Positions 39,349 through 63,682 are shown, counted from the stretch's first letter. The stretch: 64,000 nucleotides of DNA from an uncultured virus (IMG/VR IMGVR_UViG_3300028590_000010) (IMGVR_UViG_3300028590_000010), one strand, 5' to 3'. The notes: a model not told the origin generated them from the sequence alone. Numbers and translations: made by a program.

Positions 39349-39418
39349 TGGGGCCAGTAGGAGTTGAACCTATCTTCGGGAAGCTGATCAGGTCTTCCCT
39401 AAGCACACCGGCGGCCCC
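39349..39418 (-). ncRNA. D-arm-less tRNA-like RNA (Ile GAU-like loop)
   Basis: Acceptor GGGGCCG/UGGCCCC-A, T-arm UAGG-UUCAACU-CCUA, central stem GGGAAG/CUUCCC with CUGAUCA loop. Confidence 0.55.
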
Positions 39419-39534
39419 TTCGTTCGGCCGGGGTGTGTCCATTCCCCGGCCGAACTCCCTGCAATTCACTCACTTAATCGTGGGCACGTTAGTGAGTGTC
39501 GGAGTTGGCGCTCGACCCCTTCTCCGTGTGTAAA

Positions 39535-39564
39535 AACCTATGATGTTGAGACCGCCTTTGTCAA
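39535..39564 (-). promoter_or_regulatory. sigma70/HrdB-type promoter
   Basis: TTGACA-N18-TAGGTT. Confidence 0.7.
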
Positions 39565-39648
39565 ATTGCTTGGCGTTTCTCGATAATGCAGCAATGCGCC
39601 GCACTAGATGTACGACGCATTGCAACTACTGGACGCCTACCCCGTCGC

Positions 39649-41340
39649 TCAGGAAGCCTTCCGCTCCCACGGCCAGACGCCGTCCTTCCCCGACTCCAGA
39701 ATCGGAATGAGCTGGAACGCCTTGTCCGTGAGCCCGCCGAGGTGGAACCGGGCCTCGTTCCCGGACGGCATGGCCGCCGCCGAGTAACCGGCGAAGTTCC
39801 ACATGAACACCGGGACGTGCTTCGGCACGAGGTCGTTGACCTCCGTCTCCGGCATCCCGCCGTATCCCCGCCACATGTTCGACGGGAGTCGGCCGGGGCG
39901 CGTCTGCTCGTCGGTGAGGATGACGACCCGGTCGTGCCCGGCGTAGTGTCGCTTCACCGCGCTCGGGATGTCCGTGCCGGAGTCCCGACCGAAACGGTCG
40001 ACGAGCTTCAGCACGCTGACACCCCGCTCGAACGGGATCACGCGCGACTGGCCGCCGAACTCGACGAGCGTCGGGTCCTCGGCACGGAGCGCCAGGGCGG
40101 AGCCGAAGACCGCCGCCTGGTCTGCGCGACTGATGTCCGACTTCTTCGCCTTCGGGAACCAGCTGTCGTACTCCGGGAACATCGACGGCGACCGGTCGAC
40201 GAGGATGAGCGTTCGGCCGGACAGCCGGGGCACGTTGGCGAGCGAGTGGTTCAGCGCCTGCTCCAGGGGCCACGACCAGCGCAGCGAGTCCTTCGTCGCG
40301 CGGTACGCGGCGAGGAACCGGAAGGGGAACTGCCGGGAGCTGGCGATCTGCTCACGGCTGGCCAGCCGCTCCATGACGTCCACCGCCACCTCGTCCGAGA
40401 CACCGGCCTGGTCGAAGTTCCGGAGGTTGCGGATGAGGGCCATGATCCCCATCGACGGGATCACCGCCTCCCACGCTTCCTTCGTGCTACCGACATGAGA
40501 GATCACGTTCTCCCACGTCATGCCTGCCGCCTTGACGTAGTCGACGTTCAGCCACATCGACTCCTCGCCATGTCGGTGCAGAGCCCGGTTGCGCATGATC
40601 ACGTCAAGCGAGAACGGGATGTCCTGCGTCGACTCGATGCGTCCGTGACGACGGTCGATGGCGAACTTGAACAGGTCGCCCTGCCACACCTCGTCCGGCG
40701 TCGGATGGGTCAGCTCCAGCACGTCGGCGAACCGGTACGACTTGGTGTCGGTGTCGTACTTGAGCAGCGACCGCTGGTTGTACAGACGGATCACCGCGTC
40801 GGCAACACCGCGCTTGACCGGCTTCGGGATGCGCCGTCCGTACCACGCCGTCCAGATCGCGAGGATCTCGCCGGGCTCGTCGGCTCGCTGGCACACAGCG
40901 TCGATGAGCCGACGGTTGGTGAAGATGGTCTCGTCGGAGTCGGGGTGCGGGACATTGGCACCGACGCATCCGTGCTGCTGCGCCGCGAGTCGTTCGTGAA
41001 CGAACTCGACGGCGAACATCAGCGCGCCGGTCCGGATGTTCCCCTCGGAGCGGAGCCAACGTGCGAACCGGAAGCCCCAGCTGGGGTCCTCGACCGCGAT
41101 CTCGCGGACCAGCTCACGGAGCCGGTCGTCGCGCCTCTCGGCCGACTCGTAGAAGTCGGCCTCGCCGCCGTGGAACGCGCCGGTCGCCCGCAGGAACAGC
41201 TCCGTCTTGGCGTCACGGGTGTACCCGGCACCGCCCTCGAACGTGAGAGTGTTCGCCTTCTTCGTCTCGGTGCCCAACGGGCTGGACACCGTGGCCACGG
41301 CAGCCTTCGCCTTGTGGCTCGGCGCGTTGAAGCGCGTCAT
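39649..41340 (-). CDS. rsr: Ro60 / TROVE-domain RNA-binding protein with C-terminal vWA (563 aa)
   Basis: DAKTELF, FYES, WLRSEGNIRT, QRADEP, PKPVKRGVADA, MTWE, MALIRNLRNF, SRQFPFRFLAAY; MIDAS VDRSPSM and ILTDEQ. Confidence 0.95.
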   Translation of the reverse strand: MTRFNAPSHKAKAAVATVSSPLGTETKKANTLTFEGGAGYTRDAKTELFLRATGAFHGGEADFYESAERRDDRLRELVREIAVEDPSWGFRFARWLRSEGNIRTGALMFAVEFVHERLAAQQHGCVGANVPHPDSDETIFTNRRLIDAVCQRADEPGEILAIWTAWYGRRIPKPVKRGVADAVIRLYNQRSLLKYDTDTKSYRFADVLELTHPTPDEVWQGDLFKFAIDRRHGRIESTQDIPFSLDVIMRNRALHRHGEESMWLNVDYVKAAGMTWENVISHVGSTKEAWEAVIPSMGIMALIRNLRNFDQAGVSDEVAVDVMERLASREQIASSRQFPFRFLAAYRATKDSLRWSWPLEQALNHSLANVPRLSGRTLILVDRSPSMFPEYDSWFPKAKKSDISRADQAAVFGSALALRAEDPTLVEFGGQSRVIPFERGVSVLKLVDRFGRDSGTDIPSAVKRHYAGHDRVVILTDEQTRPGRLPSNMWRGYGGMPETEVNDLVPKHVPVFMWNFAGYSAAAMPSGNEARFHLGGLTDKAFQLIPILESGKDGVWPWERKAS

Positions 41341-41389
41341 GTCTACCTTCCCTTCGCACCGGACATGCCGGTGATCGAGTCGACGGACA
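41341..41389 (-). promoter_or_regulatory. Permuted Y-RNA Ro-binding motif overlapping the Ro RBS (candidate translational operator)
   Basis: Leader UGUCCGUC-GACUCGAUC-ACCGG-CAUGU-CCGGU-GCGAAG-GGAAGG-UAGAC-AUG has both conserved strands of the upstream Y-RNA-like elements in reverse order. Confidence 0.6.
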
Positions 41390-41617
41390 TCAGTCCGCCA
41401 ACCGCCAGTCCTCCGCGAGGAGCTGCTGGTCATTGACGCGGTACGGCTCCCTGCTGCCGTCGTTCCGCGTCACCACCGGGGTCGGTTCGAACCCGGGGAG
41501 GTCACGCACCAGCTCTACGTGTGCGTACTCACTAGGGATGTGGGCGTAGGCGTCCCAGCTCTCACGCCGGACAGCCTGACCCTCCTTCAACTTGCGCAGG
41601 GCCCAGCTGAAGTCCAT
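41390..41617 (-). CDS. DUF2829 / Tad2-like (Thoeris anti-defence 2) small protein
   Basis: MDFSWALRKLKEGQAVRRESW...QLLAEDW matches the DUF2829 signature MnF..Al..lK.G..v.R.gW...DmlAeDW. Confidence 0.75.
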   Translation of the reverse strand: MDFSWALRKLKEGQAVRRESWDAYAHIPSEYAHVELVRDLPGFEPTPVVTRNDGSREPYRVNDQQLLAEDWRLAD

Positions 41618-41645
41618 GTCTCCGTCTGCCTTCTGTCTGTCGAGC

Positions 41646-41730
41646 GGTTCCTGAGATCAAGATCGCCGGTACGGGATTGGTTTCCTTGAGAGGGAAATGA
41701 AGTACCCGTGGTGGCTTCGCACCAGGAACC
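41646..41730 (-). ncRNA. Y-RNA-like element 1 (Ro-binding stem + Glu-CUC anticodon-like hairpin)
   Basis: GGUUCCUG-GUGCGAAG...GGG-UACUUC-A-UUUCC-CUCUCAA-GGAAA...CCCGU...GAUCUUGAUCU-CAGGAACC. Confidence 0.8.
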
Positions 41731-41833
41731 TGCATCGAGGTGTCTGCACAGTATGCCAACTATGCAACCGGTCCTCGCCGCCCCTGGCATGGGGCTTGAT
41801 CCGTCCCGCCCTTTGCAGTGGCGAGGGGACCCG

Positions 41834-41905
41834 TGGGAGTTGACGGATTTGAACCGCCTCGTGCAGGCCCCTGCACTTTGCCGTGTGCCCGCGTCCGGGC
41901 CTCCC
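41834..41905 (-). ncRNA. Atypical tRNA-like RNA (5-bp acceptor + T-arm, non-canonical interior)
   Basis: GGGAG/CUCCC-A, T-arm GGCGG-UUCAAAU-CCGUC, hairpins GCCCG-GACG-CGGGC and GUGCAG-GGGC-CUGCAC. Confidence 0.45.
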
Positions 41906-42016
41906 GGGTGACCCCGGACGAGTCCGGGGCAGCAGGATGGTGGAGCAACCGTGGAGTTGTGCCGCCCTGCTTCTCCGGTGCCGCTTCAAGTGGGAGCACC
42001 GGAGCCGTTCTGTACG

Positions 42017-42089
42017 CTCCCTGACCTGGACTCGAACCAGGAACCTCCGGATTAACAATCCGTTGCGCTGCCTGTTGCGCCATCAGGGA
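42017..42089 (-). tRNA. tRNA-Asn(GTT)
   Basis: Cloverleaf UCCCUGA/UCAGGGA-G, D-arm GCGC/GCGC, anticodon loop UUGUUAA, T-arm CCUGG-UUCGAGU-CCAGG; CCA not encoded. Confidence 0.92.
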
Positions 42090-42094
42090 TCGTG

Positions 42095-42246
42095 CGGGTG
42101 CGACGGGACTCGAACCCGCGCCGTGAGCCGAGCTTGGAAAACGCGCTTCCCTACAGACCCAGCGAGAGCCATTCGGTGCATCCGCAACCGTCTCGGCACG
42201 CCGCCCATCCGTTTTCGGGCCGCTCTTCCTTCTGAGCTACGCACCC
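42095..42246 (-). ncRNA. 152-nt tRNA-scaffold RNA with a ~80-nt multibranch domain in the variable arm
   Basis: Perfect acceptor GGGUGCG/CGCACCC, D-arm GCUC-AGAAGGAA-GAGC, T-arm GCGGG-UUCGAGU-CCCGU; non-canonical 10-nt anticodon loop. Confidence 0.75.
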
Positions 42247-42255
42247 ATGCAGAGC

Positions 42256-42330
42256 GCGCCCGAGATCAAAGGTGACGTGACGGCGTGATTTCACCAAAAG
42301 AAGTAGCCGTCGTGTCTTCGCACCGGGCGC
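42256..42330 (-). ncRNA. Y-RNA-like element 2 (minimal)
   Basis: GCGCCCG-GUGCGAAG...GACGG-CUACUUC-UUUUGGU-GAAAUCACG-CCGUC...CUUUGAUCU-CGGGCGC. Confidence 0.8.
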
Positions 42331-42350
42331 TGCACCCTTTTGAGTTGTAC

Positions 42351-42488
42351 CTGTCTGAGTTCAAAGTCGGAGACGGAACTATGACGGCGCTCTGCCCACT
42401 GAGCTACCCGACCGATTAAGGAAGGGGCGGGACTCGAACCCGCGACATCCGGCTCCAATGAAGTAACCGTTTCCTGCGCACCAGACAG
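42351..42488 (-). ncRNA. yrlA: Y-RNA-like element 3, YrlA-type (permuted tRNA domain)
   Basis: CUGUCUG-GUGCGCAG-GAAACGG-UUACUUC..., T-arm GCGGG-UUCGAGU-CCCGC precedes D-arm GCUC-AGUGGGCA-GAGC, ...GACUUUGAACU-CAGACAG. Confidence 0.85.
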
Positions 42489-42496
42489 AAGTCTTC

Positions 42497-42643
42497 TCGA
42501 ATGGCAGAGATCCTAGCGGAAACAGAGTTTCTTGTGCTAGCCACTACACCACAGGGGTTCATGCACCCCCGCCGGGATTCGAACCCGGGCCTTCAATTTT
42601 GCAGATTGACGAAGTATCTGTGTCCTTCGCACCTGCCATTCGA
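42497..42643 (-). ncRNA. yrlA: Y-RNA-like element 4, YrlA-type with intact Cys-GCA anticodon hairpin
   Basis: UCGAAUGGCAG-GUGCGAAG...UACUUC-G-UCAAU-CUGCAAA-AUUGA, T-arm CCGGG-UUCGAAU-CCCGG, closed acceptor CGGGGG/CCCCUG, D-arm GUGU-AGUGGCUA-GCAC, GAUCU-CUGCCAUUCGA. Confidence 0.85.
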
Positions 42644-42650
42644 TGTCTTG

Positions 42651-42680
42651 ACACTACCCAGTCGGCGGTTCCCCGCGCAA
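42651..42680 (-). promoter_or_regulatory. Promoter for the Y-RNA / tRNA / Tad2 / Ro operon
   Basis: TTGCGC-N18-TAGTGT with upstream A-tract; predicted +1 at ~42644, the 5' end of Y-RNA element 4. Confidence 0.7.
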
Positions 42681-42703
42681 CTTATTTTTCCAGCTTTTCC
42701 AAG

Positions 42704-43114
42704 TCACAGATCGAGCACGCTGGACCGGTAGTTCTCGCGTACCTCGGGGTGTGTGCGGTACGACCCCTGCTCCGCGTCGACCGGGTGCCCCCGCCAGTCG
42801 ATGCTGAAGAGCGGAATCGTTTCTATCGGCGGGTTCACCACAGGTCGGGTCATGCGCCAGCTGATATGCCATCGCTCGACGGCGACGAGGTCGAAAAGGA
42901 CCCTGACCCTACCGTCGACCTCATCCATGGGCATGCGCTCGGGGAAACCGTTGGTCTCCCGACACGCGTACCACTTCGCTACCAGCTGTCGGCTGATGGG
43001 CTTCGCACGTTCCGGGTGCAGTGCATTGAGTCGCCGCGCTATCTCGGCGAATCCTCCGTAAGTGTTGCCCGTATCAACCGGTTCAGCGGGACGCTCCACG
43101 AGCGCTTCGGCCAT
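42704..43114 (-). CDS. Hypothetical, possibly HTH protein
   Basis: GFAEIARRL...ISRQLVAKWY...GFPE; GGAGG RBS. Confidence 0.6.
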   Translation of the reverse strand: MAEALVERPAEPVDTGNTYGGFAEIARRLNALHPERAKPISRQLVAKWYACRETNGFPERMPMDEVDGRVRVLFDLVAVERWHISWRMTRPVVNPPIETIPLFSIDWRGHPVDAEQGSYRTHPEVRENYRSSVLDL

Positions 43115-43140
43115 CCCTACCTCCCCGAGTCAAGCGGTGA

Positions 43141-43214
43141 TTGCGGGGGCAGGATTTGAACCTGCGACCTCCGGGTCATGGCCCCGGCGCGCTACCGAAC
43201 TGCGCCACCCCGCC
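43141..43214 (-). tRNA. Initiator-like tRNA-Met(CAT) with non-canonical anticodon loop GCCAUGA
   Basis: Mismatched 1:72 pair (G:A), three G-C pairs at the bottom of the anticodon stem, T-arm GCAGG-UUCAAAU-CCUGC. Confidence 0.8.
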
Positions 43215-43285
43215 ACGAAAAGTTCCGCTGTCAAATAGTACGACGAGAGGAGCGTGTAGGACCTGTAAAGACGGTGCCTATCTGC

Positions 43286-43777
43286 TCACTTCTTCGTACC
43301 AGTCCCTGTTACACACGCCACGTCAGACGGGGACAGCGACACACCGTCGACCTTCACCGTCACCCACCGGGGGAGGGGGATCTCGGTCGTCTCGTCGTCG
43401 TCGTCGGTCGAGGGCGCTTCGGCCTCGACCTCCGGGTCCAGGACGGCACTCAGTTCGGCGTCGGTGCACCCGACGGACGCGAGCGTCGCGGCGATGTGAT
43501 CGAGCGCCACGCGCGTGGTCCGTATGTACTCCTCACGGAGTCCTTCCCACGCCTCGCGCTGTTCACCCTCCTCCATCACCGTGGGTGGAAGCTGTGCGTA
43601 CAGCTTCTCCAGGGAGTGGAGGGCCTCGGACATGTGCCCCTGGATGTACGGGGTGAGCCTGCTGGCGTAGCTCGCAAGCTCGCGGTGGTTGACACCGCTG
43701 TCTCGTTCGCTGGTCCGCGCGTTGGCGAGCCACGTGCCGAAAAGCACTCTTATTTCCGTCTCTTCCAGGTTTTCCAC
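43286..43777 (-). CDS. Hypothetical protein (163 aa)
   Basis: Co-oriented ORF. Confidence 0.55.
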   Translation of the reverse strand: MENLEETEIRVLFGTWLANARTSERDSGVNHRELASYASRLTPYIQGHMSEALHSLEKLYAQLPPTVMEEGEQREAWEGLREEYIRTTRVALDHIAATLASVGCTDAELSAVLDPEVEAEAPSTDDDDETTEIPLPRWVTVKVDGVSLSPSDVACVTGTGTKK

Positions 43778-43834
43778 GTTGGGCGTTCACACTAACAGGT
43801 GAGCGCCCAACGAGGAAGGGTTCGTACGGGAGTT

Positions 43835-44335
43835 CTAGAACGGGACGTTCGGGGCCATGGGGTCGGCCACCGGAGCGGCGACGGGCGGGGCCTGAACCGG
43901 CGTGGGTGCCGGGGACGGTGCCGCCGCGTCAGGCGAGGGGGCCATGATCTTCTTGACGTCCTCGCGCTCCTCGCCGTTCCACACGCGGGTGCCGACCTCG
44001 ATACGGCAGGTCTTGCCGACCAGGTCTGCGGCCACCTTCTGCGGGGCGGGGTTCTGACTGAAGTATGCCGAGTCCAGGCCCATGGCGTTCATGTGGCGGA
44101 AGAAGAAGCCGAGCGCGGTGCCGTTCTCCGGGCTGATGACGAAGTTGTTCGGGACCTTGCGTCCACCGTGCGGCCCGCCGAGGATCTCGAACTTGACGAC
44201 GAGCATGTCCTTGCCCGCGCTGGTGGTCTTCGCGGTGCCCTCGACCACCCGCACGTCGTACGTGCCGGGAGGGCAGTTGCTGAAGCCCGCGTCTTCGGCT
44301 GCCTTCAGAAGGTCGGCAAAGTTCGCAGATGCCAT
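43835..44335 (-). CDS. ssDNA-binding protein (DUF669-like)
   Basis: PPGTYDVRVVE...KDMLVVKFEILGGPHGGRKV...DLVGKTC; C-terminal VPF; follows the AAA ATPase. Confidence 0.75.
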   Translation of the reverse strand: MASANFADLLKAAEDAGFSNCPPGTYDVRVVEGTAKTTSAGKDMLVVKFEILGGPHGGRKVPNNFVISPENGTALGFFFRHMNAMGLDSAYFSQNPAPQKVAADLVGKTCRIEVGTRVWNGEEREDVKKIMAPSPDAAAPSPAPTPVQAPPVAAPVADPMAPNVPF

Positions 44336-44337
44336 GT

Positions 44338-45069
44338 TCACGCCACCTCGTTCGTCGTCGCGTCCGCGTCGGAGCGGATCGTCTTGAGCATGTCGCCGAT
44401 GTTCGGGTTGTCGATGAAGTGACCGAGACGACCGCCCACGCGCTCGCCGGTCTCGTATCCCGGGGTCGGTCCGACGAGGAGGCGGCGCACCATGGCACCG
44501 TCCTCCGTCGGTACGGGTGCCAGATACGCCAGCAGGTCCGTGTAGTAGGGGAGAGTCGTCTTCAGCTGCCCCTGCACGTACGGGTGCTGCGTTCCGTCCT
44601 GCCGCTGCTGCGCCATCGCGATGAAGAGCACGACGTCGAGCGGCCGGACCGGATTGGTCGTCAGGTCACGGAACTTCCGGACCAGGTCTGACGCCTGGCG
44701 GAGCAGGGTCCCCCAGTCCTGGAGCTGCATGGGGTTGGTTCCGACGAGAGAGTCCACCATCCGCTGCTGGACCTCGGAGATCGAGTCCATGACGACCGAG
44801 CGGAACGGGTGCTTGCCGGAGTTGAGCCACTCGTACGCCCGCTGCACAGCGGTGAAGGAGTGCACGGGAACGAGTGCCGTCTCCCAGGAACCGTCGGCCT
44901 CCGGCGGAGCGTCCCGGGTCGGGTCCCACTTGATCTTCTTACTCGGGGTGAAGCGCGAGCCCATCTCCGCGTCGAGCACCAGGCGCGGGAAGGGGGTCGT
45001 GTCGCCGAGCGTGGACTTGCCGCCCTTGCTCGGACCGTAAACGATCAGCGAGATGCCGTCGTCAGTCAT
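44338..45069 (-). CDS. AAA_24 / Sak4-like ATPase (single-strand annealing)
   Basis: YGPSKGGKST, LDAEMG, VVMDSISEVQ, QDWG. Confidence 0.85.
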   Translation of the reverse strand: MTDDGISLIVYGPSKGGKSTLGDTTPFPRLVLDAEMGSRFTPSKKIKWDPTRDAPPEADGSWETALVPVHSFTAVQRAYEWLNSGKHPFRSVVMDSISEVQQRMVDSLVGTNPMQLQDWGTLLRQASDLVRKFRDLTTNPVRPLDVVLFIAMAQQRQDGTQHPYVQGQLKTTLPYYTDLLAYLAPVPTEDGAMVRRLLVGPTPGYETGERVGGRLGHFIDNPNIGDMLKTIRSDADATTNEVA

Positions 45070-46033
45070 CGGAGCCCTCCCCGACCACGGGGACGGACAC
45101 GCCGAACGCCGCCTTCACCGTGTCGATCAGATCGTTGTTGCGGTAGTGGTAGGGATCGAGCTGGATGTAGTTCGCACGCATCGCAGCGTCGACCCGGGAC
45201 CCGTCGTCGAACATCGCGCAGACGTTCGTGAAGTTGCAGTCCCACTTGCAGCGGTCGGTCATCGGGCTCGGGTACGCCGCCACTCGGTGGTCAGTGGCTC
45301 CCGCGTCGAGCTGCCGGGTCACCCGGTCCATGTCGTCGAGGACGCCGCGCAGCCGGAGCATCATGCTGTTGTGGTCGTGCCCGTTGTAGCCGATGTGGAC
45401 CTGCTCGTAGAACGGTCCGGATGCCCTGGCCGTGCGCTTGGAGCGCAGCAACATGGCGTAGATCGCCCCGTCCACCCGCATCCCGTCGGACGCCCGTGCC
45501 AGCAGCGCCGAGTAGATGCGCATCTGCTCGTCGAGGACCAGCAGGTCGGCCTTGTGGAGCGTGGCCACGGTCTTCCAGTCACGGACGCACAGCGCGCCGT
45601 CCATCCTGCGCCGGACGATCTGGTCGAGCTTGCCGGTGACGATAGCCATCTCACCGTTGGACAGCAGCAGCGGCACCTCGACGGCGCGCTCGACGGCGAC
45701 GGCGTCGTACTCCTCGTCGATGCCGGTCTCCGCTGCCCACTCCAGGTAGCCGGACACCATGATCATGGCCCAGTCCTGTTCAGCGGTCAGCGCGTCGGCT
45801 CCGTCGGGGCGGCGTGCTCGCTCGAAGTCGTAGATGATGCCGAGGGCGGAGCACGGGTCGATGTCGTATCCGTAGTACGCCTCAAGCGCGGCATGGATAC
45901 GCGTCCCGAGCTGCGCGGCACCGGTGACCGGCGCGGTCATCGGGTCCTGCCCCCACTTGTAGTAGTACGTGAGCGCCCAACTCCGCCTGCAACGGCGGAA
46001 CTTGGCTATCTCACTGGGGGAAACCTTCAGCAC
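45062..46033 (-). CDS. PD-(D/E)XK RecB/Cas4-like exonuclease
   Basis: SPSEI..F.RC.R.W, GTRIHAALE, GKLDQI...VRDWKT, QMRIY, C-terminal CKWDC...C. Confidence 0.88.
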   Translation of the reverse strand: MLKVSPSEIAKFRRCRRSWALTYYYKWGQDPMTAPVTGAAQLGTRIHAALEAYYGYDIDPCSALGIIYDFERARRPDGADALTAEQDWAMIMVSGYLEWAAETGIDEEYDAVAVERAVEVPLLLSNGEMAIVTGKLDQIVRRRMDGALCVRDWKTVATLHKADLLVLDEQMRIYSALLARASDGMRVDGAIYAMLLRSKRTARASGPFYEQVHIGYNGHDHNSMMLRLRGVLDDMDRVTRQLDAGATDHRVAAYPSPMTDRCKWDCNFTNVCAMFDDGSRVDAAMRANYIQLDPYHYRNNDLIDTVKAAFGVSVPVVGEGSDD

Positions 46034-49315: not shown

Positions 49316-49581
49316 GATGCCCCTCCTGCCGTGCGCGCCACCAGGTGCCAGACCAGGTGTCCCCCGGGAGTCAATGTAGTGCCCACGTAGGTTGCGCCGG
49401 GCTCGACCCGGCGTCCGGTGCCGTATACCCGGTACTCCGTGGGGAGTTCGGTCGCCGACTCCCACGCCCAGAACTCCACGATGTCGGCGTCTCGGGAGGC
49501 AACGTGGAGTGGCCGCCCGGCGGTGTAGACCGTGTGCCACTCTTCGTCGACCGGGACGATGTACCTGAGAATGCGGGTCAC
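49312..49581 (-). CDS. Hypothetical protein (89 aa)
   Basis: RVYGTG...YVGT...LVWHL; coupled. Confidence 0.7.
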   Translation of the reverse strand: MTRILRYIVPVDEEWHTVYTAGRPLHVASRDADIVEFWAWESATELPTEYRVYGTGRRVEPGATYVGTTLTPGGHLVWHLVARTAGGAS

Positions 49582-53281: not shown

Positions 53282-53414
53282 TTCCCCTGTCCCGTTGTCG
53301 ATCATGATCATGATACAACAAAGGGCACTCGTACTCGTTCACGTGTACGGGTGCCCGTGCCGGGGATTCTGTGCGCGTCCACCCCGACGGCAGACATCTT
53401 TGGCGCACCCTGCG

Positions 53415-53662
53415 TGGGAGGGGTGGGAGTCGAACCCACCCAGCCGGAGCACTGCATCTCGGTTTTCCCGTACGGCTCCGCTTTCGGGTCACCAGCCCGC
53501 GATCCATCGTCACGGCCGGAATCGAACCGGCACACTGCCCTTTCCTCCCCAGTGGCATCCTTTCGCGTCACCGGTGGATGCCGACCGGTCTGGCCGAAGC
53601 GCCGGTCGATCGGAGGAGTCACGAACGAACGACGCCGCTGACGCAGTCGGGGTACCCCTCCC
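53415..53662 (-). ncRNA. ~248-nt structured RNA with tRNA-like ends and a second internal T-arm
   Basis: GGGAGGG/CCCUCCC-A, terminal T-arm GUGGG-UUCGACU-CCCAC, internal GCCGG-UUCGAUU-CCGGC, several hairpins. Confidence 0.65.
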
Positions 53663-53748
53663 GACACCTTGCCCTCGCTCCCCGTGTGTTCTCCCGTGAG
53701 GGGTCAAGCCGGGGTCACTCCCCGGACACGGTAATGGCAAGCCCATCG

Positions 53749-53820
53749 TAGACACGGCAGGATTCGAACCTGCGCATCCGCTTTAGGAGAGCGGCGCTCT
53801 ATCCCCTGAGCTACGTGTCC
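53749..53820 (-). tRNA. tRNA-Arg(CCT)
   Basis: GGACACG/CGUGUCU-A, D-arm GCUC/GAGC, CCGCU-CUCCUAA-AGCGG, T-arm GCAGG-UUCGAAU-CCUGC. Confidence 0.93.
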
Positions 53821-54544: not shown

Positions 54545-54553
54545 TTTTCCCTC

Positions 54554-57548: not shown

Positions 57549-57563
57549 GTCTCCTTCCTTCAC

Positions 57564-58007
57564 TCAGACGCGGATGACCGTCGTCTTCTTGACGGCCATC
57601 TGCTGCTTGTTGCTACCGGACGCCTCGCTCGCCGCCTTGCCGTCACCCTGCGGGTTGGTCGGCTTGGCCAGGAGCGACATGATGGCGTTGACGTCGACCA
57701 CCACGTCCATGACGTCGTCGACCAGCAGACGGCAGCTGTCCCGCCACGGGCGCAGTCCCTGCCGGTAGGCACCACGGCGGAACGTGATCCGCACCTTGCT
57801 GTTGTGTCCCGCCGTGCAGGAGCAGTAGCACTCCCCCGTCTCGCGGTGCATCAGCTCGTGGAGCAGCTCGCTGCATTCGAGGGACTCGTCGAGTTCGATG
57901 ACCCAGCCACCGCTCTTCTCGTCCCAGAACGGCACGCACTCGCTCTTCATGCTGCGCGTGATCCTGAGTGCCATGTGCTGGACCTTCGCCGGTGCGATTC
58001 CCGGCAT
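57564..58007 (-). CDS. Hypothetical protein (147 aa)
   Basis: GGAAGGTGA RBS. Confidence 0.6.
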   Translation of the reverse strand: MPGIAPAKVQHMALRITRSMKSECVPFWDEKSGGWVIELDESLECSELLHELMHRETGECYCSCTAGHNSKVRITFRRGAYRQGLRPWRDSCRLLVDDVMDVVVDVNAIMSLLAKPTNPQGDGKAASEASGSNKQQMAVKKTTVIRV

Positions 58008-58010
58008 ACG

Positions 58011-58775
58011 TCACCTTCCCCTGTCTTCGTCGGCCGCCGCCTCGCGGCCCCTCACCTGTTGGATGTAGTCCTTGACCAGCTGAAGGGGCGTGCTGACCAG
58101 GTCGACCCCCTCCGCCGCCAGCAGCTTCACGATGTCGCAGAGCTGGTCGGTGGCTTCGTTCATCAGCGACAGCGTCCTGGCGTGTTCGACGGCATGTCGC
58201 CGCTCGATCTCACTGACGTGCGGCATGATGCTGCCGCCCAGGTCAGCGGTGATACCCGCGATGACCTCGATGGCCGCCACCTCGCCCTTGTTCCAGCACT
58301 CGCACCACTGGCGGTAGCGCTCCAGCTGAGCGTCCCGATCAGCGACGACCTGCTCAGCCTGTGCGGCTGCCCTGTCTCGCTGCTCAGTGGCCTCGACGAG
58401 CTTCTTCCGCAGCTCCTCGACCAGCTCGTCCAGTTCCCGCGCCCGCTGCGCTTCCTCCGCCTTGGCGGTGGTGGCTCGACGGGCGTGGTCGCGCCACTGC
58501 TGGCGCTTGGCGAGGAGCTGGGCGACCTTCTCCCGCTCCTCGGTGAGCTGCTGGTAGATCGAGCTGGCATCGTGGTCCCTCATCACCTGCTGGGCATCCC
58601 AGACGACGAGGTTCAGGGCGCTGTGCAGGCGCATCCAGGATCGGTGATGGTTCTCCGCCTGGTTCTGCCAGCGGATCGCCTCCTCACGGAGGTTCGCCGA
58701 CTCCTGCCGCGCCTCACGGAGCCGCTCACTAAGGTACTTGTTGTGCTCCGCCAGGCTGTCTATGTCTCGTTCCAT
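58011..58775 (-). CDS. Coiled-coil protein
   Basis: Heptad-rich E/Q/R/A helices. Confidence 0.65.
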   Translation of the reverse strand: MERDIDSLAEHNKYLSERLREARQESANLREEAIRWQNQAENHHRSWMRLHSALNLVVWDAQQVMRDHDASSIYQQLTEEREKVAQLLAKRQQWRDHARRATTAKAEEAQRARELDELVEELRKKLVEATEQRDRAAAQAEQVVADRDAQLERYRQWCECWNKGEVAAIEVIAGITADLGGSIMPHVSEIERRHAVEHARTLSLMNEATDQLCDIVKLLAAEGVDLVSTPLQLVKDYIQQVRGREAAADEDRGR

Positions 58776-58861
58776 CACTGTCTCTTCTCCGGCTGGCCGA
58801 AACTTAACACACATACGGCGTAGCCGGGCATCCGTATCACACAAATACCCGGCCACCACCG

Positions 58862-59050
58862 CTAGTTGAGCTTGTGCCGGTCGGCCAGCGCCTCGAAGTC
58901 GGCCGGTTCGATCGTGCCGAGGTCGACGAAGCCGAACTGCTCGACGTACCCCTTGACCAGGCCCGCGATGTCGTACTCCCCGACCCGGTCGCCGAGGCGT
59001 GACGTGATCGTGACCTCCAGGACCATGCGTCCCATGTCCTTGAAGATCAC
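58862..59050 (-). CDS. Hypothetical protein (62 aa)
   Basis: AAGGAGG RBS; coupled. Confidence 0.65.
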   Translation of the reverse strand: MIFKDMGRMVLEVTITSRLGDRVGEYDIAGLVKGYVEQFGFVDLGTIEPADFEALADRHKLN

Positions 59051-59307
59051 GCCTCGACCTCCTTCGGGGACCGGGCGAATCCCCAGGACTCCTCGACGGC
59101 CTCGACGATCTCCTCCAGGATCGATGCCGCCTCCCGGTCGATCTCGTCCATGTCCTCCTGGTTGCGCTGCGCGCTGCCAGTCGAGACCATGATCGTCGCC
59201 TTCAGGGCCGCGCGGCGGTCAATCCACTTCTTGCCCTCGATCAGCCAACGCTCCAGGTTGGGCGGGATCGCGTGGGTCGGCTCCCCACTGGACTCCCAAT
59301 TACTCAC
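59047..59307 (-). CDS. Hypothetical protein (86 aa)
   Basis: AAGGAGACAG RBS before GTG. Confidence 0.6.
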   Translation of the reverse strand: MSNWESSGEPTHAIPPNLERWLIEGKKWIDRRAALKATIMVSTGSAQRNQEDMDEIDREAASILEEIVEAVEESWGFARSPKEVEA

Positions 59308-59344
59308 AGCTGTCTCCTTCCTTGCGTGTCTTTGCGAGGCGAGC

Positions 59345-59650
59345 TTACGCGGCCAGCGCCTGGTGCCTCGCCCGGCGGGTGAGGCACAGCCCCTTGGCCG
59401 TCCCCCAGTTCCGCATGGCCCGTGTCGCCGCCAGCGCCTCGATCTCGGCCGCCAGGTGCGTCGGGTCGAGCCAGTCCGGTGCCTGGTCAAGGGTGCTGGC
59501 CATGCCCTCACGCCGGAGCCTGGACAGCTCGGCGTGGAACATGGCCAGGAACCGCTCGGGCGTCTCCGAGTGCGCTGCCCTGTTCCTCGCCCGACCGCAC
59601 ACCGAGTCGAAGCGCTTGCTGTAGGGGGTGATGTCAATCTGCTCGGACAT
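59345..59650 (-). CDS. Hypothetical protein (101 aa)
   Basis: AAGGAG RBS. Confidence 0.6.
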   Translation of the reverse strand: MSEQIDITPYSKRFDSVCGRARNRAAHSETPERFLAMFHAELSRLRREGMASTLDQAPDWLDPTHLAAEIEALAATRAMRNWGTAKGLCLTRRARHQALAA

Positions 59651-59879
59651 GAATTCTCCTTGCTTCCGCGTGACACGCCCGCAGGTACAGCACGAGGAGG
59701 CCATTCAGGAACAGGGAAGCGGCAATTCCGTGCCGGATCGCGTCCGTCAGCAGAAAGCCGAATGCGTACCCGATGGCCCCCATCGCCATGGTCGCCACCC
59801 CGTAGATACACGGGGCGACGACAGGACGGTCATGCCACGTTATGTGGTCTATGGTCCGGTGTCTTCCTGTTGTACCCAT
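59634..59879 (-). CDS. Small membrane protein
   Basis: Two hydrophobic segments. Confidence 0.45.
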   Translation of the reverse strand: MGTTGRHRTIDHITWHDRPVVAPCIYGVATMAMGAIGYAFGFLLTDAIRHGIAASLFLNGLLVLYLRACHAEARRIHVRAD

Positions 59880-59899
59880 CGCCCCTCATATTGCCGGGA

Positions 59900-60487
59900 T
59901 TACGAGCGGTGCGGGGCCTTCAGTCGGAGAACCGAAAGCATCTCGTCGAGGATGTCATCAGGCTGCGCAGCCGTCAGGGATTCCGGGTACTTCTGGATCA
60001 GAACCATGCGGAGACGCTTGTAGTCGTCCGGGCGCAGGCGGCGCTCGATGACCGGCGTGTAGTGCTTCATGTCGTCCGGCTCCGGCAGGCCGTACCGCAT
60101 GCGCGTCAGCGCCAGCAGCTCCCGCAGGCCGTCCGGCGTGAGGAGGAAGCTGCTCCCTCCCGCGCCCCGGGACAACGGCGCGTCGGCCCTCAGGTCGTAC
60201 GTCGCCTTGCTCGTCGGGTTGGGCACCGCGTACAGGTCGGGCAGGTCGTCACCCTCGGGCAGCGTCACCAGCCAGTCCGCGCGGGGGCGCACCTCGATGA
60301 GCTTCCCGCTGGTGATCGCCTCGGTGATCCGGGCCAGCACCACCTGCCGTGACACCGACAACAGGTCAGCGGCCATGTTGCAGATCTGTCCCCGCGCCAG
60401 CAGGCGGTCGGGGTACATCGCCTGCACAGAAGCGATGTAGGGCAACAGGTGCTGGTCCAGCCGCTCGGCGGACGCAGTCAGTCCCAT
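59900..60487 (-). CDS. Hypothetical protein (195 aa)
   Basis: AAGGAG RBS. Confidence 0.65.
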   Translation of the reverse strand: MGLTASAERLDQHLLPYIASVQAMYPDRLLARGQICNMAADLLSVSRQVVLARITEAITSGKLIEVRPRADWLVTLPEGDDLPDLYAVPNPTSKATYDLRADAPLSRGAGGSSFLLTPDGLRELLALTRMRYGLPEPDDMKHYTPVIERRLRPDDYKRLRMVLIQKYPESLTAAQPDDILDEMLSVLRLKAPHRS

Positions 60488-60546
60488 GTCTCATGTCTCC
60501 TTCCAGAAGGGAGAGGCCCGACCACCGTAGCGGTCGGGCCCCAGGT

Positions 60547-61227
60547 CTAGCTGACGTTCAGCGCACCCCGCAGCACGGAGCGGAAGTCGCCGGGCGTCAC
60601 GTCGAAGCTCTCGCCGACGATGCGCAGGGACCACAGCCCGGTGCCCTTGTCCCGGTCGAGCCGGGCCATGGCCAGCATGCGGCGGGTGCCGAGCAGCGAC
60701 GGCTCGTACTCGCCGACCGCCTCGAACGCGCCGCCGGAGCCGTCGTAGATGGTGGCCTTCACGTCGCGGACGGCGTCGACCGAGGAGCCCTTCTTCGCGG
60801 CCCCGCCGATCAGGAGGACGCTGTCGTAGCGCCGGGGGATGTTCGGCAGGTCCAGCTCCACGGACTCGTCGTCGCCGTCACCGGCACCGCGCACGCTGTC
60901 GCCGGAGTGCCGGGCGGCCAGGCGCTCCTCGGTGGTGGCCTCGTCCTTGAACGGCTCGAAGTTGTCGAAGCCGATGTACTTCTTCGGGTCGCCGTCGGTG
61001 AGGAACACCGCGCCCGCGTCCCAGTCGGCCGGGTCGGTGGTGCCGTCCAGCTCGCGCTTCTTCTTGTCGGCCCATCCCATCAGGCCCTTGCGCTCACTCT
61101 TCAGCGGCTCCCACCGCAGGCCGAACTTGAGGACCCGCACGCCGGTGCCGTCGACCGGCTGGCCGGGGTCCTCGTTGACGAACTGGTAGAGGGGGTACGT
61201 TCCGTCGCTCTTGCTCAGGCTGTGCAT
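60547..61227 (-). CDS. TerD-family protein
   Basis: FGLRWEP, DWDAGA, HSGDSVRGAGDGDDESVELDL. Confidence 0.9.
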   Translation of the reverse strand: MHSLSKSDGTYPLYQFVNEDPGQPVDGTGVRVLKFGLRWEPLKSERKGLMGWADKKKRELDGTTDPADWDAGAVFLTDGDPKKYIGFDNFEPFKDEATTEERLAARHSGDSVRGAGDGDDESVELDLPNIPRRYDSVLLIGGAAKKGSSVDAVRDVKATIYDGSGGAFEAVGEYEPSLLGTRRMLAMARLDRDKGTGLWSLRIVGESFDVTPGDFRSVLRGALNVS

Positions 61228-61252
61228 GAACTGTCTCCTTCGTTTGTTGTTG

Positions 61253-61759
61253 TTACTGCGGCAGGTCGTACACCGTGACGGACAGGCCGTAGATGTCGAC
61301 CAAGGTCGCGAGGATGGCTTCCTCGACCACGGACCAGTCGCCGCCGCCGAGACCGCACCCGATGCGGGGCATGTGGATGGACGGCACGACGCCGGTCACC
61401 TCACACCAGGAGGTAGCGCCTCGCCCCAGATAGTCCAGACACTGCCGCAGTGCCGGGTAGTTGATGGCGGGCGGGGCACTCGGACTGTGTCGGATGCCGT
61501 CCTGGGCGATCATGTTGACCACCTTGACATCCGGCTCGGTGAAGTCGGCGAGCTGCACGTACCCCAGTTCGAAGGGCACCGTGCTCCAGGTGCCGTTGCG
61601 GTGCCACTCCCGGTACTGCATCTCCGGCGTCTTGCAGCGCCGGGACAGGGCGACGACGAACCCGCTCCCCCAGCCGCCCTTGTTGTTGCAGACGTGGGCG
61701 ATGAGGCGTGCGCCCTCACCCTGCGGCTGGGTGGCGTCACCCGTCACGTAGTTGATCAT
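61253..61759 (-). CDS. Macrodomain ADP-ribosylhydrolase (TARG1 / DarG / SCO6735-like)
   Basis: YVTGDAT, IAHVCNNKGGWGSGF, NMIAQ, IHMPRIGCGLGGGDW. Confidence 0.9.
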   Translation of the reverse strand: MINYVTGDATQPQGEGARLIAHVCNNKGGWGSGFVVALSRRCKTPEMQYREWHRNGTWSTVPFELGYVQLADFTEPDVKVVNMIAQDGIRHSPSAPPAINYPALRQCLDYLGRGATSWCEVTGVVPSIHMPRIGCGLGGGDWSVVEEAILATLVDIYGLSVTVYDLPQ

Positions 61760-61809
61760 TCTTCTCCTTCATGGCGGGGCCGTGGCGATCCACGGCCCAC
61801 ACCGTCACG

Positions 61810-62940
61810 TCACTTCGTCAGAAGCAGGAGCTGGGTGCCGACACGGAGGTGCCGGTTCAGCGACGTCGACTCGACGAAGATCTTGTAGCCGGGGTTGAGC
61901 GTCGGCTTCACCCGACACTGCCCGGAGGGCAGGCCGAGGAGCTGCCGGGCACCGTCCCCGACGTACACCTGGTTGTCGTTCACGTCGACCACGGCGATCT
62001 GCTTGTCCGCCGTGACGCGCTCGGGCTTGGTCAGCTCGTAGTACGCCATGCCGACCCGGTAGGGCGGGTAGGCGGCGTCCACGAACGGCTTGATCTCCAC
62101 GTGCCACGCCCGGTCCGGGACGGGACGCTTCTTCGTGGGCCGGTTGACGTCCTTCTCGAAGAAGATGGACTCCGTACCCCGCGTCTTGGCGACGAGCACG
62201 ATCTTCCGGTCGGCGGTCGGCAGCGGCGTGAGCTTGGCCGCCTTGATGGCCGAGGCGTCCACGTTCTCGCCGACCACGAAGGCGCTCTTGGTGCCCCGCA
62301 GACCGGTCCGGGTACGGGTGTCGACGTAGGTGGTGTGCGCCGTCTTGATCCGCTCGACGGCCTGCTCCAGACCGGCCTCAGTCGAGGCGTCCCACAGGGC
62401 GACGTTGCCCTTGGCGAAGCCGAAGCCGTACATGTGCTGGGCGGAACGCTCGTCCGGGGCGAGTGCCAGCATGGTGATGTTGTCGGCAAGCCCGTCGAGC
62501 CGCTTGGTCAGCTCCTCCTGGTGCACGCTCAGCGGCACGCGGCCGAAGCCGCCTGTCCGGCCGCGCCGCCCCCGGCTGACGTTCTCCTCGCCGTCGGTGA
62601 GGATGTACGCCATGAAGTCGTGCTTGCCGTACTGCTCCGGCACCGTGGCGAAGTCGTCGATGACCTGGTGAACGGCGTCGGCCAGCGCCGTGCTGCTCTT
62701 GATCTGGTACAGCCCCTTCATGCTGGGCAGACGGAAGACGTCCATGTCCCAGATGTGACACTCGACCTCGTTGGAGAACGAGTAGACGGTGATGCGGGTC
62801 TCCTCGTTGTCGTCCTTGGACTTCTTCGCGAGGAACTGCACCAGGTCGTCGGTCACCTTGACGACCTTGTCGGCCAGCCTTCTCATCGAGTAACTGGCAT
62901 CAAGCGCCAGAGCTATGTGGTTGATGTAATTCTGCTTCAC
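61810..62940 (-). CDS. vWA-domain protein
   Basis: MIDAS LDASYSM, TALADA, ILTDGEEN. Confidence 0.88.
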   Translation of the reverse strand: MKQNYINHIALALDASYSMRRLADKVVKVTDDLVQFLAKKSKDDNEETRITVYSFSNEVECHIWDMDVFRLPSMKGLYQIKSSTALADAVHQVIDDFATVPEQYGKHDFMAYILTDGEENVSRGRRGRTGGFGRVPLSVHQEELTKRLDGLADNITMLALAPDERSAQHMYGFGFAKGNVALWDASTEAGLEQAVERIKTAHTTYVDTRTRTGLRGTKSAFVVGENVDASAIKAAKLTPLPTADRKIVLVAKTRGTESIFFEKDVNRPTKKRPVPDRAWHVEIKPFVDAAYPPYRVGMAYYELTKPERVTADKQIAVVDVNDNQVYVGDGARQLLGLPSGQCRVKPTLNPGYKIFVESTSLNRHLRVGTQLLLLTK

Positions 62941-63014
62941 GTCTCTCCTTCGCCTGTCTGTCGGTCATGAATTCTCGCACCCACAGCCGGAAAAATCACC
63001 CTCGCTACCGTGAT

Positions 63015-63293
63015 TCAAAACCACCCGAAGAGGCCGAGGCACACACAGATGAACCCCGCCGCCCCGAAGACGAATCCGACCAGACCGAGCAGTAGCACAA
63101 GGCACCCGTCGGCGCTCTCGAAGGACTTGCTGAACTTGCTGGCCGTGTAGCAGAAACCGGCCGCTACGAGGACCAGGAAAAGGCCGGTCCCCAAGGGATA
63201 AAACCACGGCGTTGTGTGAAGGGCACCAATAAGACCCTTAGCCGCGTGAGTAACTCTCACAGATGTCGCCTTCTCGATATACAAAACGCGCAC
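63015..63293 (-). CDS. Small membrane protein
   Basis: Two hydrophobic segments; start uncertain. Confidence 0.5.
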   Translation of the reverse strand: MRVLYIEKATSVRVTHAAKGLIGALHTTPWFYPLGTGLFLVLVAAGFCYTASKFSKSFESADGCLVLLLGLVGFVFGAAGFICVCLGLFGWF

Positions 63294-63355
63294 CCGATCG
63301 GCGACGGGTGCGCGTTGTCCGTCCCCTGCACCGCCAGGAGCAGAGAGAACGGTCG

Positions 63356-63444
63356 TAAGCCGGACGGGACTTGAACCCGCACACCCTTACCACAGGGCGT
63401 CCCTCCCGAGCGGCGAGGGGGGATCGACCGCTCAGGTCCGGCTC
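63356..63444 (-). ncRNA. 89-nt tRNA-like RNA with replaced D and anticodon arms
   Basis: GAGCCGG/CCGGCUU-A, T-arm GCGGG-UUCAAGU-CCCGU, hairpins CCUGAGCGG/CCGCUCGGG and ACGCCCU/AGGGUGU. Confidence 0.6.
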
Positions 63445-63547
63445 TCCAGGCCCATTTCGCACATCTTGGGCGGGCCCACCCTCAATGACCTCAAGCAATC
63501 TTCGAGGTGGTGCTGGCCCCTCGGCGGCCCCTGTCCGCGAGTGGCAG

Positions 63548-63682
63548 TCGGAGCGCCCGGACTCGAACCGGGCTCGCCGTGACGCTGACGTGGAACAGAC
63601 TGGGTCCAGAACGCAGGTTCAGAACATTGTCCACTGTCTCGGCTTTCCAGATGCCTGCCGCTGTTACCCGGCAGACGCTCCG
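63548..63682 (-). ncRNA. 135-nt tRNA-like RNA with long internal helix
   Basis: CGGAGCG/CGCUCCG-A, T-arm CCCGG-UUCGAGU-CCGGG, hairpin CUGCCG/CGGCAG, long stem GCCGAGAC/GUCACGGC. Confidence 0.65.

Follow-up and report, generated by a model that had tools for sequence, protein, structure and literature searches.

tRNA-Like Elements, Probable Y RNAs, and a Ro60 Gene in an Uncultured Phage-Like Genome

The Locus and Its Features

The DNA considered here is a 64,000-nucleotide stretch from an uncultured virus (IMG/VR IMGVR_UViG_3300028590_000010), referred to throughout as the window, which has the character of phage sequence and a GC content of 65%. Frame analysis based on GC content at third codon positions (GC3) indicates that its minus strand carries genes from ~37.4 kb to the window end (~64 kb). 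A preliminary description of this region, made from the sequence alone, singled out six elements, here el1 to el6, and proposed that each keeps only the acceptor stem and T-arm of a tRNA as a scaffold for diverse cargo. All six were recovered at the positions given there, on the minus, gene-bearing strand. That description had overlooked two T-arms, at 42430 and 42575, that lie in units resembling the Y RNA YrlA, one extra T-arm within el4, and the gene for an orthologue of the TROVE protein Ro60 (Rsr). The features that bear on the relationship between the six elements and the Ro60 gene are given below in minus-strand order, with lengths in nucleotides (nt) or base pairs (bp).

63548..63682, minus: el6, tRNA-like RNA of 135 nt; acceptor of 7-8 bp, D-position hairpin of 6 bp, middle of ~80 nt, and T stem of 6 bp
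63356..63444, minus: el5, tRNA-like element of 89 nt; fold z-score -3.66; weak match to Rfam tRNA-Sec (22.5 bits, E 2.4)
63285..63316, minus: hairpin resembling an intrinsic terminator (12 bp and a T run), which follows el5 and closes the el6-el5 unit
53748..53820, minus: tRNA-Arg(CCT), upstream of el4; called by ARAGORN; Rfam 69.8 bits
53415..53662, minus: el4, region of uncertain outline that holds two T-arms, at 53518-53528 and 53426-53436
43139..43215, minus: tRNA-Met(CAT), first gene of the noncoding RNA array; called by ARAGORN; Rfam tRNA model 55.1 bits
42502..42638, minus: Y1, probable permuted tRNA-like Y RNA of 137 nt; 5' GGTGCGAAG, 3' GGATCTC, outer stem paired 5/5
42352..42487, minus: Y2, probable YrlA-like Y RNA (permuted tRNA mimic) of 136 nt; 5' GGTGCGCAG, outer stem paired 5/5
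42257..42329, minus: Y3, short YrlB-like hairpin of 73 nt with no tRNA domain; GGTGCGAAG/TTGATCTC, stem GCGCCCG/CGGGCGC
42095..42246, minus: el3, tRNA-shaped RNA of 152 nt with an 8-nt loop, AAAACGGA, and a conserved variable arm of ~75 nt
42016..42089, minus: tRNA-Asn(GTT), 5 nt after el3; called by ARAGORN; Rfam 62.4 bits
41834..41905, minus: el2, tRNA-like element of 72 nt with a 5-bp acceptor, a D-position hairpin, CACACGGCAAA, a middle hairpin, and a T-arm
41648..41728, minus: Y4, short YrlB-like hairpin of 81 nt; GGTGCGAAG, outer stem GGTTCCTG/CAGGAACC (also written GGUUCCUG/CAGGAACC)
41390..41617, minus: small protein of 75 amino acids resembling Thoeris anti-defence 2 (Tad2-like); Pfam PF11195, 4.1e-11
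39649..41433, minus: Ro60/Rsr orthologue, 594-codon open reading frame (ORF); Pfam TROVE 9.7e-21
39349..39418, minus: el1, tRNA-like element of 70 nt lacking a D arm; acceptor of 7 bp, hairpin of 6 bp (10-nt loop ACCUGAUCAG), and T-arm

The noncoding RNA (ncRNA) array runs on the minus strand from 43215 to 41648 in the order tRNA-Met, a small ORF, Y1, Y2, Y3, el3, tRNA-Asn, el2, and Y4; most of its units are separated by gaps of 5-22 nt. Downstream of the array come the Tad2-like gene, the Ro60 gene, and then el1. Y1-Y4, el1, el2, and el3 all lie within 1.3 kb of the Ro60 gene and on its strand; el4, el5, and el6 are 12-22 kb away.

Distribution of T-Arm Modules

The window contains 12 copies of the T-loop word GGTTCRANTCC, all of them on the minus strand between 39 and 64 kb. 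Dinucleotide shuffles contain a mean of 0.35 copies and a maximum of 2, and none of 100 shuffles reached 12. Three of the copies belong to the three tRNAs that are ARAGORN's only calls in the window, and nine to non-tRNA modules: one each in el1, el2, el3, el5, and el6, two in el4, and those at 42430 and 42575. The T stem is fully paired (5/5) in eight of these nine modules and paired at 4/5 positions in el1. The preliminary description was therefore correct in assigning a T-arm to each of the six elements and in stating that such modules outnumber the real tRNAs. It was also correct that none has a normal anticodon arm, as no 7-nt anticodon loop could be read from any of the sequences; the loop in the anticodon position has 10 nt in el1, 4 nt in el2, 8 nt without U33 in el3, and 6 nt in el5, and is missing from el4 and el6. 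ARAGORN calls none of the six, in keeping with the expectation that tRNA finders would miss them.

Paired ends, which had been attributed to all six, are a less secure feature. A 7/7 match to the seven bases that follow the T stem (G-U pairs allowed, partner at most 300 nt upstream) arises in 8-51% of dinucleotide shuffles for el1, el3, el4, el5, and el6, and the real tRNAs behave likewise, with 28-72%. Because 7/7 pairing alone falls within chance, predicted ends count only where homologues keep them, and it is for el1, el2, el3, and el6 that homologues support the predicted acceptor ends. Folding energy is uninformative at a GC content of 65%: the fold z-scores of el1, el3, el4, and el6 are ordinary (-0.07, the value for el3, to -1.88), and only el2 and el5 stand out.

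The abundance of T-arms extends to other phages. In 66 non-duplicate Ro60 loci, T-arm words with a paired stem on the Ro60 strand were found 179 times in ARAGORN tRNAs, 51 times inside Y units, 45 times followed by a D-arm (the permuted order), and 68 times in other non-tRNA settings, giving 164 non-tRNA modules near phage Ro60 genes versus 179 true tRNA T-arms. The opposite strand held 6 T-arms in any setting. The genome-wide pattern that was first proposed is hence real and spans the Ro60 phages; it consists largely of the Ro60/Y-RNA system together with several small families.

The el3 RNA Family

The element el3 resembles a canonical tRNA in that the Rfam tRNA model (RF00005) spans it end to end through the acceptor, D, and T arms and exceeds the gathering score (36.7 bits versus 29). 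It differs from one in its 95-nt insert and its 8-nt loop without U33; none of the remaining five elements has an anticodon arm of standard form. Pairwise comparisons were made with a relative designated G002; a further record, G001, is the same phage as the window. Between the window and G002, el3 is 96.1% identical, compared with 78.4% for the adjoining Ro60 gene, and this conservation ends exactly at the acceptor termini.

Homologues of el3 were found by distant blastn in 13 Streptomyces phage records, and one more occurs in a metagenomic Ro60 locus. Carriers include the cultured Streptomyces phages Alone3, Comrade, JustBecause, and Quantum and their relatives, and those homologues that were looked at are situated within tRNA gene regions or close to them. 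Twelve of the 13 Streptomyces records have nothing annotated where the match falls, and in LuckySocke a 'hypothetical protein' is called there. The coding sequence in question, LuckySocke gene 22 (230-379 of locus L099), overlaps the el3 homologue (296-450) in its 5' half and is probably a mis-call over an RNA gene. Megablast of 41500-43500 against phage records gave short tRNA matches only. An invariant 21-mer of the el3 arm is present in 10 viral contigs and in none of 185,579 prokaryote species (one genome each). As far as searched, the family is specific to actinophages.

In the sequence searched, a covariance model for el3, R1, built from 11 sequences, tells 20 family members, which score 65.7-184 bits, apart from tRNAs, none of which exceeds 37.4 bits. 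On the window it scores el3 at 170.5 bits, the other match listed being tRNA-Arg at 34 bits; el1, el2, el4, el5, and el6 are not members. In an alignment of the 20 sequences (18 distinct rows), 97.2% of cells fall in standard pairs, versus 80.7% after shuffling and 34-49% in a control with slid partners. The covariation score of 0.528 compares with 0.194 for shuffled alignments, none of 500 of which reached it, and with 0.07-0.12 for slid partners. Double changes were seen at 20 of 38 pairs, including 5/7 in the acceptor, 5/5 in the anticodon-like stem, 6/6 at the base of the big arm, and 4/5 in the T stem.

The el3 consensus keeps U8, A14, the D-loop GG, the T loop, a 7-bp acceptor, and the D arm, and since an anticodon-like arm is retained too, the claim that only the top half of a tRNA survives is wrong for this element. 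The loop, AAAACGG(A), is invariant and without U33. The variable arm ranges from 75 to 150 nt across the family, Quantum having ~80 nt extra inside it, and contains the invariant stretches GGUUGC.G..GCACCG and AGGGAAGCGCGUU, with the core GCACCG...AGGGAAGCGCG; the invariant stretch GCACCGAA resembles the Ro60-contact motif. The discriminator (last aligned base) is A in most rows, and no CCA is encoded, as is also the case for the real tRNAs of this phage. None of 11 family members tested was called a tRNA or transfer-messenger RNA (tmRNA) by ARAGORN. No tmRNA was called in the window or around the el3 homologues; only fragments scoring 12-17 bits against tmRNA models appeared. A 151-nt contig identical to 42097-42247 comes from a run labeled metatranscriptomic that is marked 'probably DNA'; as a contig does not reveal the ends of an RNA, it was not used as evidence. 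Rfam has no family for el3 itself, and the literature searched on actinophage tRNA-like ncRNAs, TROVE phages, and phage tRNA-like decoys yielded no description of RNAs of this type. Very probably, el3 represents a genuine and undescribed family of structured RNA.

A TROVE protein is also encoded in 18 of the 20 records that carry el3, at distances from el3 of <1 kb to ~39 kb. The two records with el3 and no TROVE are G009, a fragment that is 35% complete, and G011. The association is strong and not obligatory, on a count that takes no account of shared ancestry. The invariance of the loop and of the arm core makes it most likely that el3 binds a specific partner, be it Ro60, an enzyme tethered to Ro60, or an enzyme that binds tRNA.

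The Probable Y RNAs of the Array

Each of the units Y1-Y4 has a GGUGCGAAG-type word at its 5' side, (C/U)GGUGCG(A/C)AG, and a (C)UUGAUCUC-type word at its 3' side. The five outer bases pair in every unit but differ from one to another (GGCAG/CUGCC, GUCUG/CAGAC, GCGCCCG/CGGGCGC, and GGUUCCUG/CAGGAACC). The phage motif is identical to the vertebrate GGUCCGAAG at 8/9 positions, and the two phage words can, on paper, form a bulged helix of the vertebrate type, GGU·(G)·CGA with UUGAUC. The motif and the covarying closing stem together constitute the predicted helix to which Ro60 would bind.

The longer units, Y1 and Y2, also contain a permuted tRNA-like domain. In Y1, the T-arm (42575-42585) is followed by a closed acceptor hairpin and a D arm, and the unit scores 30.7 bits with the Rfam tRNA model (positions 6-65) and 17.4 bits with YrlA (42534-42589). 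Y2 matches the full YrlA model (RF02553) at 42364-42470 with 39.2 bits (E 1.1e-6), in an alignment that displays the diagnostic order of T-arm, closed acceptor hairpin, and D-arm. This domain is absent from Y3, whose 3' end is 10 nt from the 5' end of el3, and from Y4, which lies just upstream of the Tad2-like and Ro60 genes and is 88.8% identical to its counterpart in G002. It is absent from el1-el6 as well, and these also lack the Y-RNA arrangement of a 5' motif with termini paired as the closing stem.

A descriptor script found exactly four Y units on the two strands of the whole window, all on the minus strand from 42638 to 41648, a count that is descriptive because the descriptor was derived from the window; the independent part is the strand bias elsewhere, where 69 Ro60 loci from relatives gave 73 units on the Ro60 strand versus 2 on the opposite strand, in 33 loci. 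The YrlA model also finds matches upstream of Ro60 in 3/3 relatives among viral contigs (L002, L003, and L004) and in 3/3 cultured actinophages (Alone3, VanLee, and Atuin), with scores of 30-47 bits. Y1-Y4 are very probably Y RNAs, and this part of the locus is known biology, adding another member to a known system.

Some Y RNAs carry an additional element. Between the Ro60 motif and the T-arm of Y1, positions 42590-42625 hold a 5-bp stem with a 7-nt loop, CUGCAAA, that mimics a Cys-like anticodon arm. Asn-like loops, CUGUUAA or CUAUUAA, occur in Y RNAs of relatives (L002 ~3080-3100, L003 ~2530-2550, and L004 ~2700-2720), one of which is read by ARAGORN as tRNA-Asn(att).

el1 and el2

The el2 family has six members (the window, G002, L030, L033, L036, and L037), all of which are located within ~0.5 kb upstream of Ro60. 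Its acceptor consists of five pairs and two mismatches, short of the paired ends first described; these pairs, and the mismatches, are conserved in the homologues. The D-position hairpin, a single-stranded stretch, CACACGGC(A)AAA, and the T-arm are common to the six members, and the sequence of the middle hairpin is almost freely replaced among them. RNAalifold predicts 22 pairs, 5 of which have compensatory changes, and the fold z-score is -3.18. The Y RNA 5' word follows the el2 discriminator by 10-12 nt in G002 and L037, so that the Y closing stem of these two relatives starts 3-8 nt after the 3' end of el2; in the window ~105 nt separate el2 from the next Y RNA. A relative's 103.6-kb contig has 68 other letters in place of 41731-41896, the el2 segment, and part of Y2 is replaced there too. 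The same contig keeps 41897-42331 (tRNA-Asn, el3, and Y3) with 17 changes and 6 gaps.

The el1 element is found in 5 phages, always beside Ro60. It lies just downstream of the gene in the window and G002, both copies having a 7-bp acceptor, no D arm, and the loop ACCUGAUCAG or GACUGAGCAG, and longer versions with an extra hairpin lie just upstream of the gene in G003, G004, and L073. The CUGAUC-type loop is kept on differing stems (GGGAAG, GGGAG, CCGAG, CCGGG, and CGGAGG). This covariation was read from the sequences by eye, as an insertion defeats a four-way MAFFT alignment. On the evidence of their homologues, el1, el2, and el6 (discussed below) are likely to be functional RNAs.

A short Ro60-motif-like word, GGUGCGAA (also written GGTGCGAA), was noted between el1-type elements and the ribosome-binding site of the next ORF, at 39241-39249 (minus strand) of the window, at ~3990 in L003, and at ~3480 in L073. 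For L003 and L073 the ORF concerned is that of Ro60; in the window it has 138 codons. The position of a Ro60-motif-like word ahead of the Ro60 ORF hints that Ro60 may regulate its own expression.

el4, el5, and el6

A single homologue of el6 is known, in G002. Among 19 scaffold pairs read from the alignment, 5 show double compensatory changes (2 in the D-position hairpin and 3 in the T stem), 2 show single wobble changes, and none is broken. The ~80-nt interior is divergent and poorly alignable, with indels that are not multiples of three, which led to rejection of a coding sequence in this region. The linker between el6 and el5 (63455-63545, minus strand) is better conserved with G002 than the el6 interior and contains the Ro60-motif-like GUGCGAAAUGG. 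Upstream of el6, at 63780-63815 (minus strand), TTGACA and TAGTGT are separated by 19 nt, and G002 has TTGACA-19-TAGTCT, as read by eye; a sigma-70 scan reported no promoter upstream of el6 or el4, and it would not call this pair because the spacer exceeds 18 nt.

At the same place in G002, el5 is absent through an indel. The description of el4 as one 248-nt element is not supported: it has two T-arms (53426 and 53518), its outline depends on one G-rich 8-bp match, and it has no homologue. Only its 3' T-arm and ~50 nt downstream are conserved in G002, where a different tRNA-like sequence replaces the remainder. The segment right after el4, 53365-53415 (minus strand), which starts with CCACGCAGGGTGCGCC, is nearly identical in G002 (L005, ~49530-49580), and in a contig from a different soil run a T-arm is followed by a similar word (a loose end at 42420). 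Distant blastn of el4, el5, and el6 against 50,697 phage records gave no match, and scanning viral contigs with patterns taken from the conserved flanks of these elements returned G001 and G002 only. For el4 and el5, a role as functional RNAs is somewhat doubtful; both are lineage-specific and may be recent or decaying.

The Ro60 Gene and Its Neighbors

In addition to its TROVE match, the Ro60 ORF matches PHROG 850, 'RNA-binding protein', at 1.6e-39 and TROVE proteins of solved structure in the PDB at 6.6e-28, and it shares 41-44% identity with proteins that bear the annotation 'Ro-like RNA binding protein' in phages of Streptomyces, Gordonia, and Arthrobacter. The true start codon is probably ~30-35 codons downstream of 41433, given relatives of 554-560 amino acids. 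A tblastn search with this protein matched only 98 of 50,697 phage records, and a hidden Markov model reaches more distant copies, such as that of Comrade. The Tad2-like gene between Y4 and Ro60 sets the Ro60/Y-RNA array in a possible counter-defence neighborhood.

Other observations concern Ro60 loci in relatives. The Rfam manA RNA model (RF01745) matches L027 at 5506-5738 with 47.8 bits (gathering score 55.2; E 1.5e-9). This site belongs to Streptomyces phage Alone3 (OR725492.1, ~13113-13345); it lies a short way downstream of the Ro60 gene, in a gap without annotation that two tRNA-Lys genes flank. Many Ro60 loci have a 'tRNA-Cys(gca)' call upstream.

A Proposed Repertoire of ncRNAs Around Phage Ro60

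We hold with moderate confidence that the six elements are part of a soil-actinophage ncRNA repertoire built around phage Ro60 (TROVE) and that they are not one class. Five of them (el1, el2, el3, el5, and el6) are tRNA-shaped with open acceptor ends, and their distributions differ: el3 occurs in 20 records, el2 in 6, el1 in 5, el6 in 2, and el4 and el5 each in a single record. As judged from the compensatory changes, at least el3, el2, el1, and el6 are kept by selection on their predicted structures.

The array would be transcribed as precursors, in which host RNase P and RNase Z would cut at every acceptor/T-arm module, whether tRNA or mimic. Such cuts would set the neighboring Y RNAs free, and the mimics would persist as stable RNAs able to receive CCA. 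This scheme is suggested by the tight spacing of the units and by the precedent of Mycobacterium smegmatis described below. With a conserved scaffold and an interior free to vary, el2 and the outer portions of el6 have the look of handles for processing or stability.

Several points weigh against this interpretation. The elements el4, el5, and el6 are 12-22 kb from Ro60, and el4 and el5 have no homologues. A number of phages carry el3 10-39 kb from the Ro60 gene, and G011, a 153-kb record with terminal repeats that is rated complete, has el3 but no TROVE. Conversely, no el3 shows up in six Ro60 phages (Frankenweenie, BRock, Neville, Atuin, VanLee, and G003, the last being 92% complete) or in one fragment, G004, where the matches of R1 are at tRNA level only. 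The el3 alignment was fitted to the model, and its 20 sequences amount to about ten lineages; the predicted inner helices of the arm never vary and carry no covariation information. The Y-unit descriptor was written after the window's four units had been seen and is not a blind test. The YrlA scores in the window (39.2 and 17.4 bits) are far under the Rfam gathering score of 69, and the phage motif GGUGCGAAG is a near match to the bacterial consensus GNCGAAN0-1G, with one extra base, and no strict fit.

A more specific proposal, which we regard as possible and advance only tentatively, is that RNAs of the el3 type are a new class of phage effector, with a complete tRNA body, open and processable ends, and a conserved domain of ~75 nt in place of the variable arm. 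During infection, an RNA of this class would act together with Ro60, that of the phage or that of the host, or would engage an enzyme that binds tRNA, and its topology could be regarded as that of a Y RNA turned inside out.

Alternative Explanations

The preliminary description saw in the six elements one toolkit, in which an acceptor/T-arm scaffold delivers differing cargo as decoys, antitoxin mimics, or scaffolds against host defences. This is unlikely. The conserved scaffold and variable interior of el2 and el6, the anti-defence (Tad2-like) gene inside the array, the Asn-like or Cys-like anticodon-arm mimics in relatives' Y RNAs, and the frequency of non-tRNA T-arms near phage Ro60 genes are all compatible with it. 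The six are, however, unrelated families with differing conservation that share no cargo, no distribution, and no architecture beyond the T-arm; the tRNA core of el3 is complete, no target among defences or toxins was identifiable, and the Ro60/Y-RNA context explains the cluster without a toolkit.

It is less probable still that the elements are decaying tRNA genes (pseudogenes) or functionless leftovers of turnover in tRNA arrays. That might be said of el5, an indel relative to G002 with no homologue, of el4, which is swapped for a different tRNA-like sequence in G002, and of the el2 segment and part of Y2, replaced in the 103.6-kb contig, and the ordinary fold z-scores of el1, el3, el4, and el6 would fit such an origin. 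Decay would not leave el3 better conserved than the neighboring protein gene (96% vs 78%) with strong covariation over 20 sequences, nor el2, el1, and el6 with stems kept through double changes, nor all modules on one strand with perfect T-loops.

LeuRS and SerRS, the leucyl- and seryl-tRNA synthetases, ignore the anticodon. RNAs of the el3 type could on such grounds be chargeable, non-decoding tRNAs that donate an amino acid outside translation or titrate a synthetase or EF-Tu, for which the complete core (U8, A14, D-loop GG, and T loop), the covarying 7-bp acceptor, the class II-like placement of the insert at the variable arm, the mostly A discriminator, and the unencoded CCA might speak, yet the 75-150-nt arm is far beyond that of any class II tRNA, the invariant loop is without U33, and the co-occurrence with TROVE points elsewhere, all of which makes this proposal improbable.

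Three other identities were considered and rejected: tmRNA, as a tag frame is absent and ARAGORN makes no call; a tRNA interrupted by a group I intron, as the insert is too short, sits in the variable-arm position, and gives no Rfam intron match; and attP remnants, as both acceptor strands are there.

Relation to Known Systems

A survey of bacterial Y RNAs (Chen et al., 2014; PMC4201824) describes YrlA-like RNAs adjoining Ro60 in 254 bacteria and 22 phages, each species having two or more Y RNAs, of which one is tRNA-like and one a hairpin. It relates the bacterial 5' motif GNCGAAN0-1G to the GGUCCGA contacted by Xenopus Ro60 and reports that in M. smegmatis YrlA and YrlB come from one precursor, with RNase P cleaving YrlA and CCA being added (PMC4201824). 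On that account, Y1-Y4 resemble YrlA/YrlB and Ro60 (Rsr) in that several occur per locus, adjoin the TROVE gene on the same strand, and include a tRNA-like and a plain hairpin type; the 5' motif is a near match. Unlike YrlA/YrlB, Y1-Y4 score under the Rfam threshold and, in our own reading, keep both strands of a vertebrate-like bulged helix, and their relatives carry the extra anticodon-arm mimic. In architecture, el1-el6 are not Y RNAs: their termini make up the acceptor stem. YrlA, by contrast, has a closed acceptor, and its termini build the Ro60 stem.

Phage T4 offers another parallel. Its species I and II RNAs have tRNA-like ends. One transcript of the T4 tRNA cluster gives rise to eight tRNAs as well as the RNAs termed 'species I and II' (PMC2330249). 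As there, stable non-tRNA RNAs would here be co-transcribed with phage tRNAs and released by tRNA processing. T4, unlike the present phage, has no Ro60. In eukaryotes and animal viruses, the tRNA-like elements of mascRNA/MALAT1 and of the gammaherpesvirus MHV68 act as handles for RNase P/Z and thereby set where neighboring ncRNAs end. The likeness of these to the phage elements is in the way of working, with no homology.

Significance

From bacteria to humans, Ro60 and Y RNAs make up a conserved system of RNA quality control. In the present locus and 60-odd relatives, phage Ro60 genes are set in arrays with tRNA mimics that are nearly as numerous as tRNAs. For phage annotation, the el3-type RNAs are genes that current records leave blank. 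Because el3 is found in cultured, genetically tractable Streptomyces phages, the role of phage Ro60 and the use of tRNA enzymes are directly testable. If the tentative reading of el3 as an effector is true, el3 together with el1, el2, and el6 would mean that actinophages routinely make non-decoding RNAs via tRNA processing.

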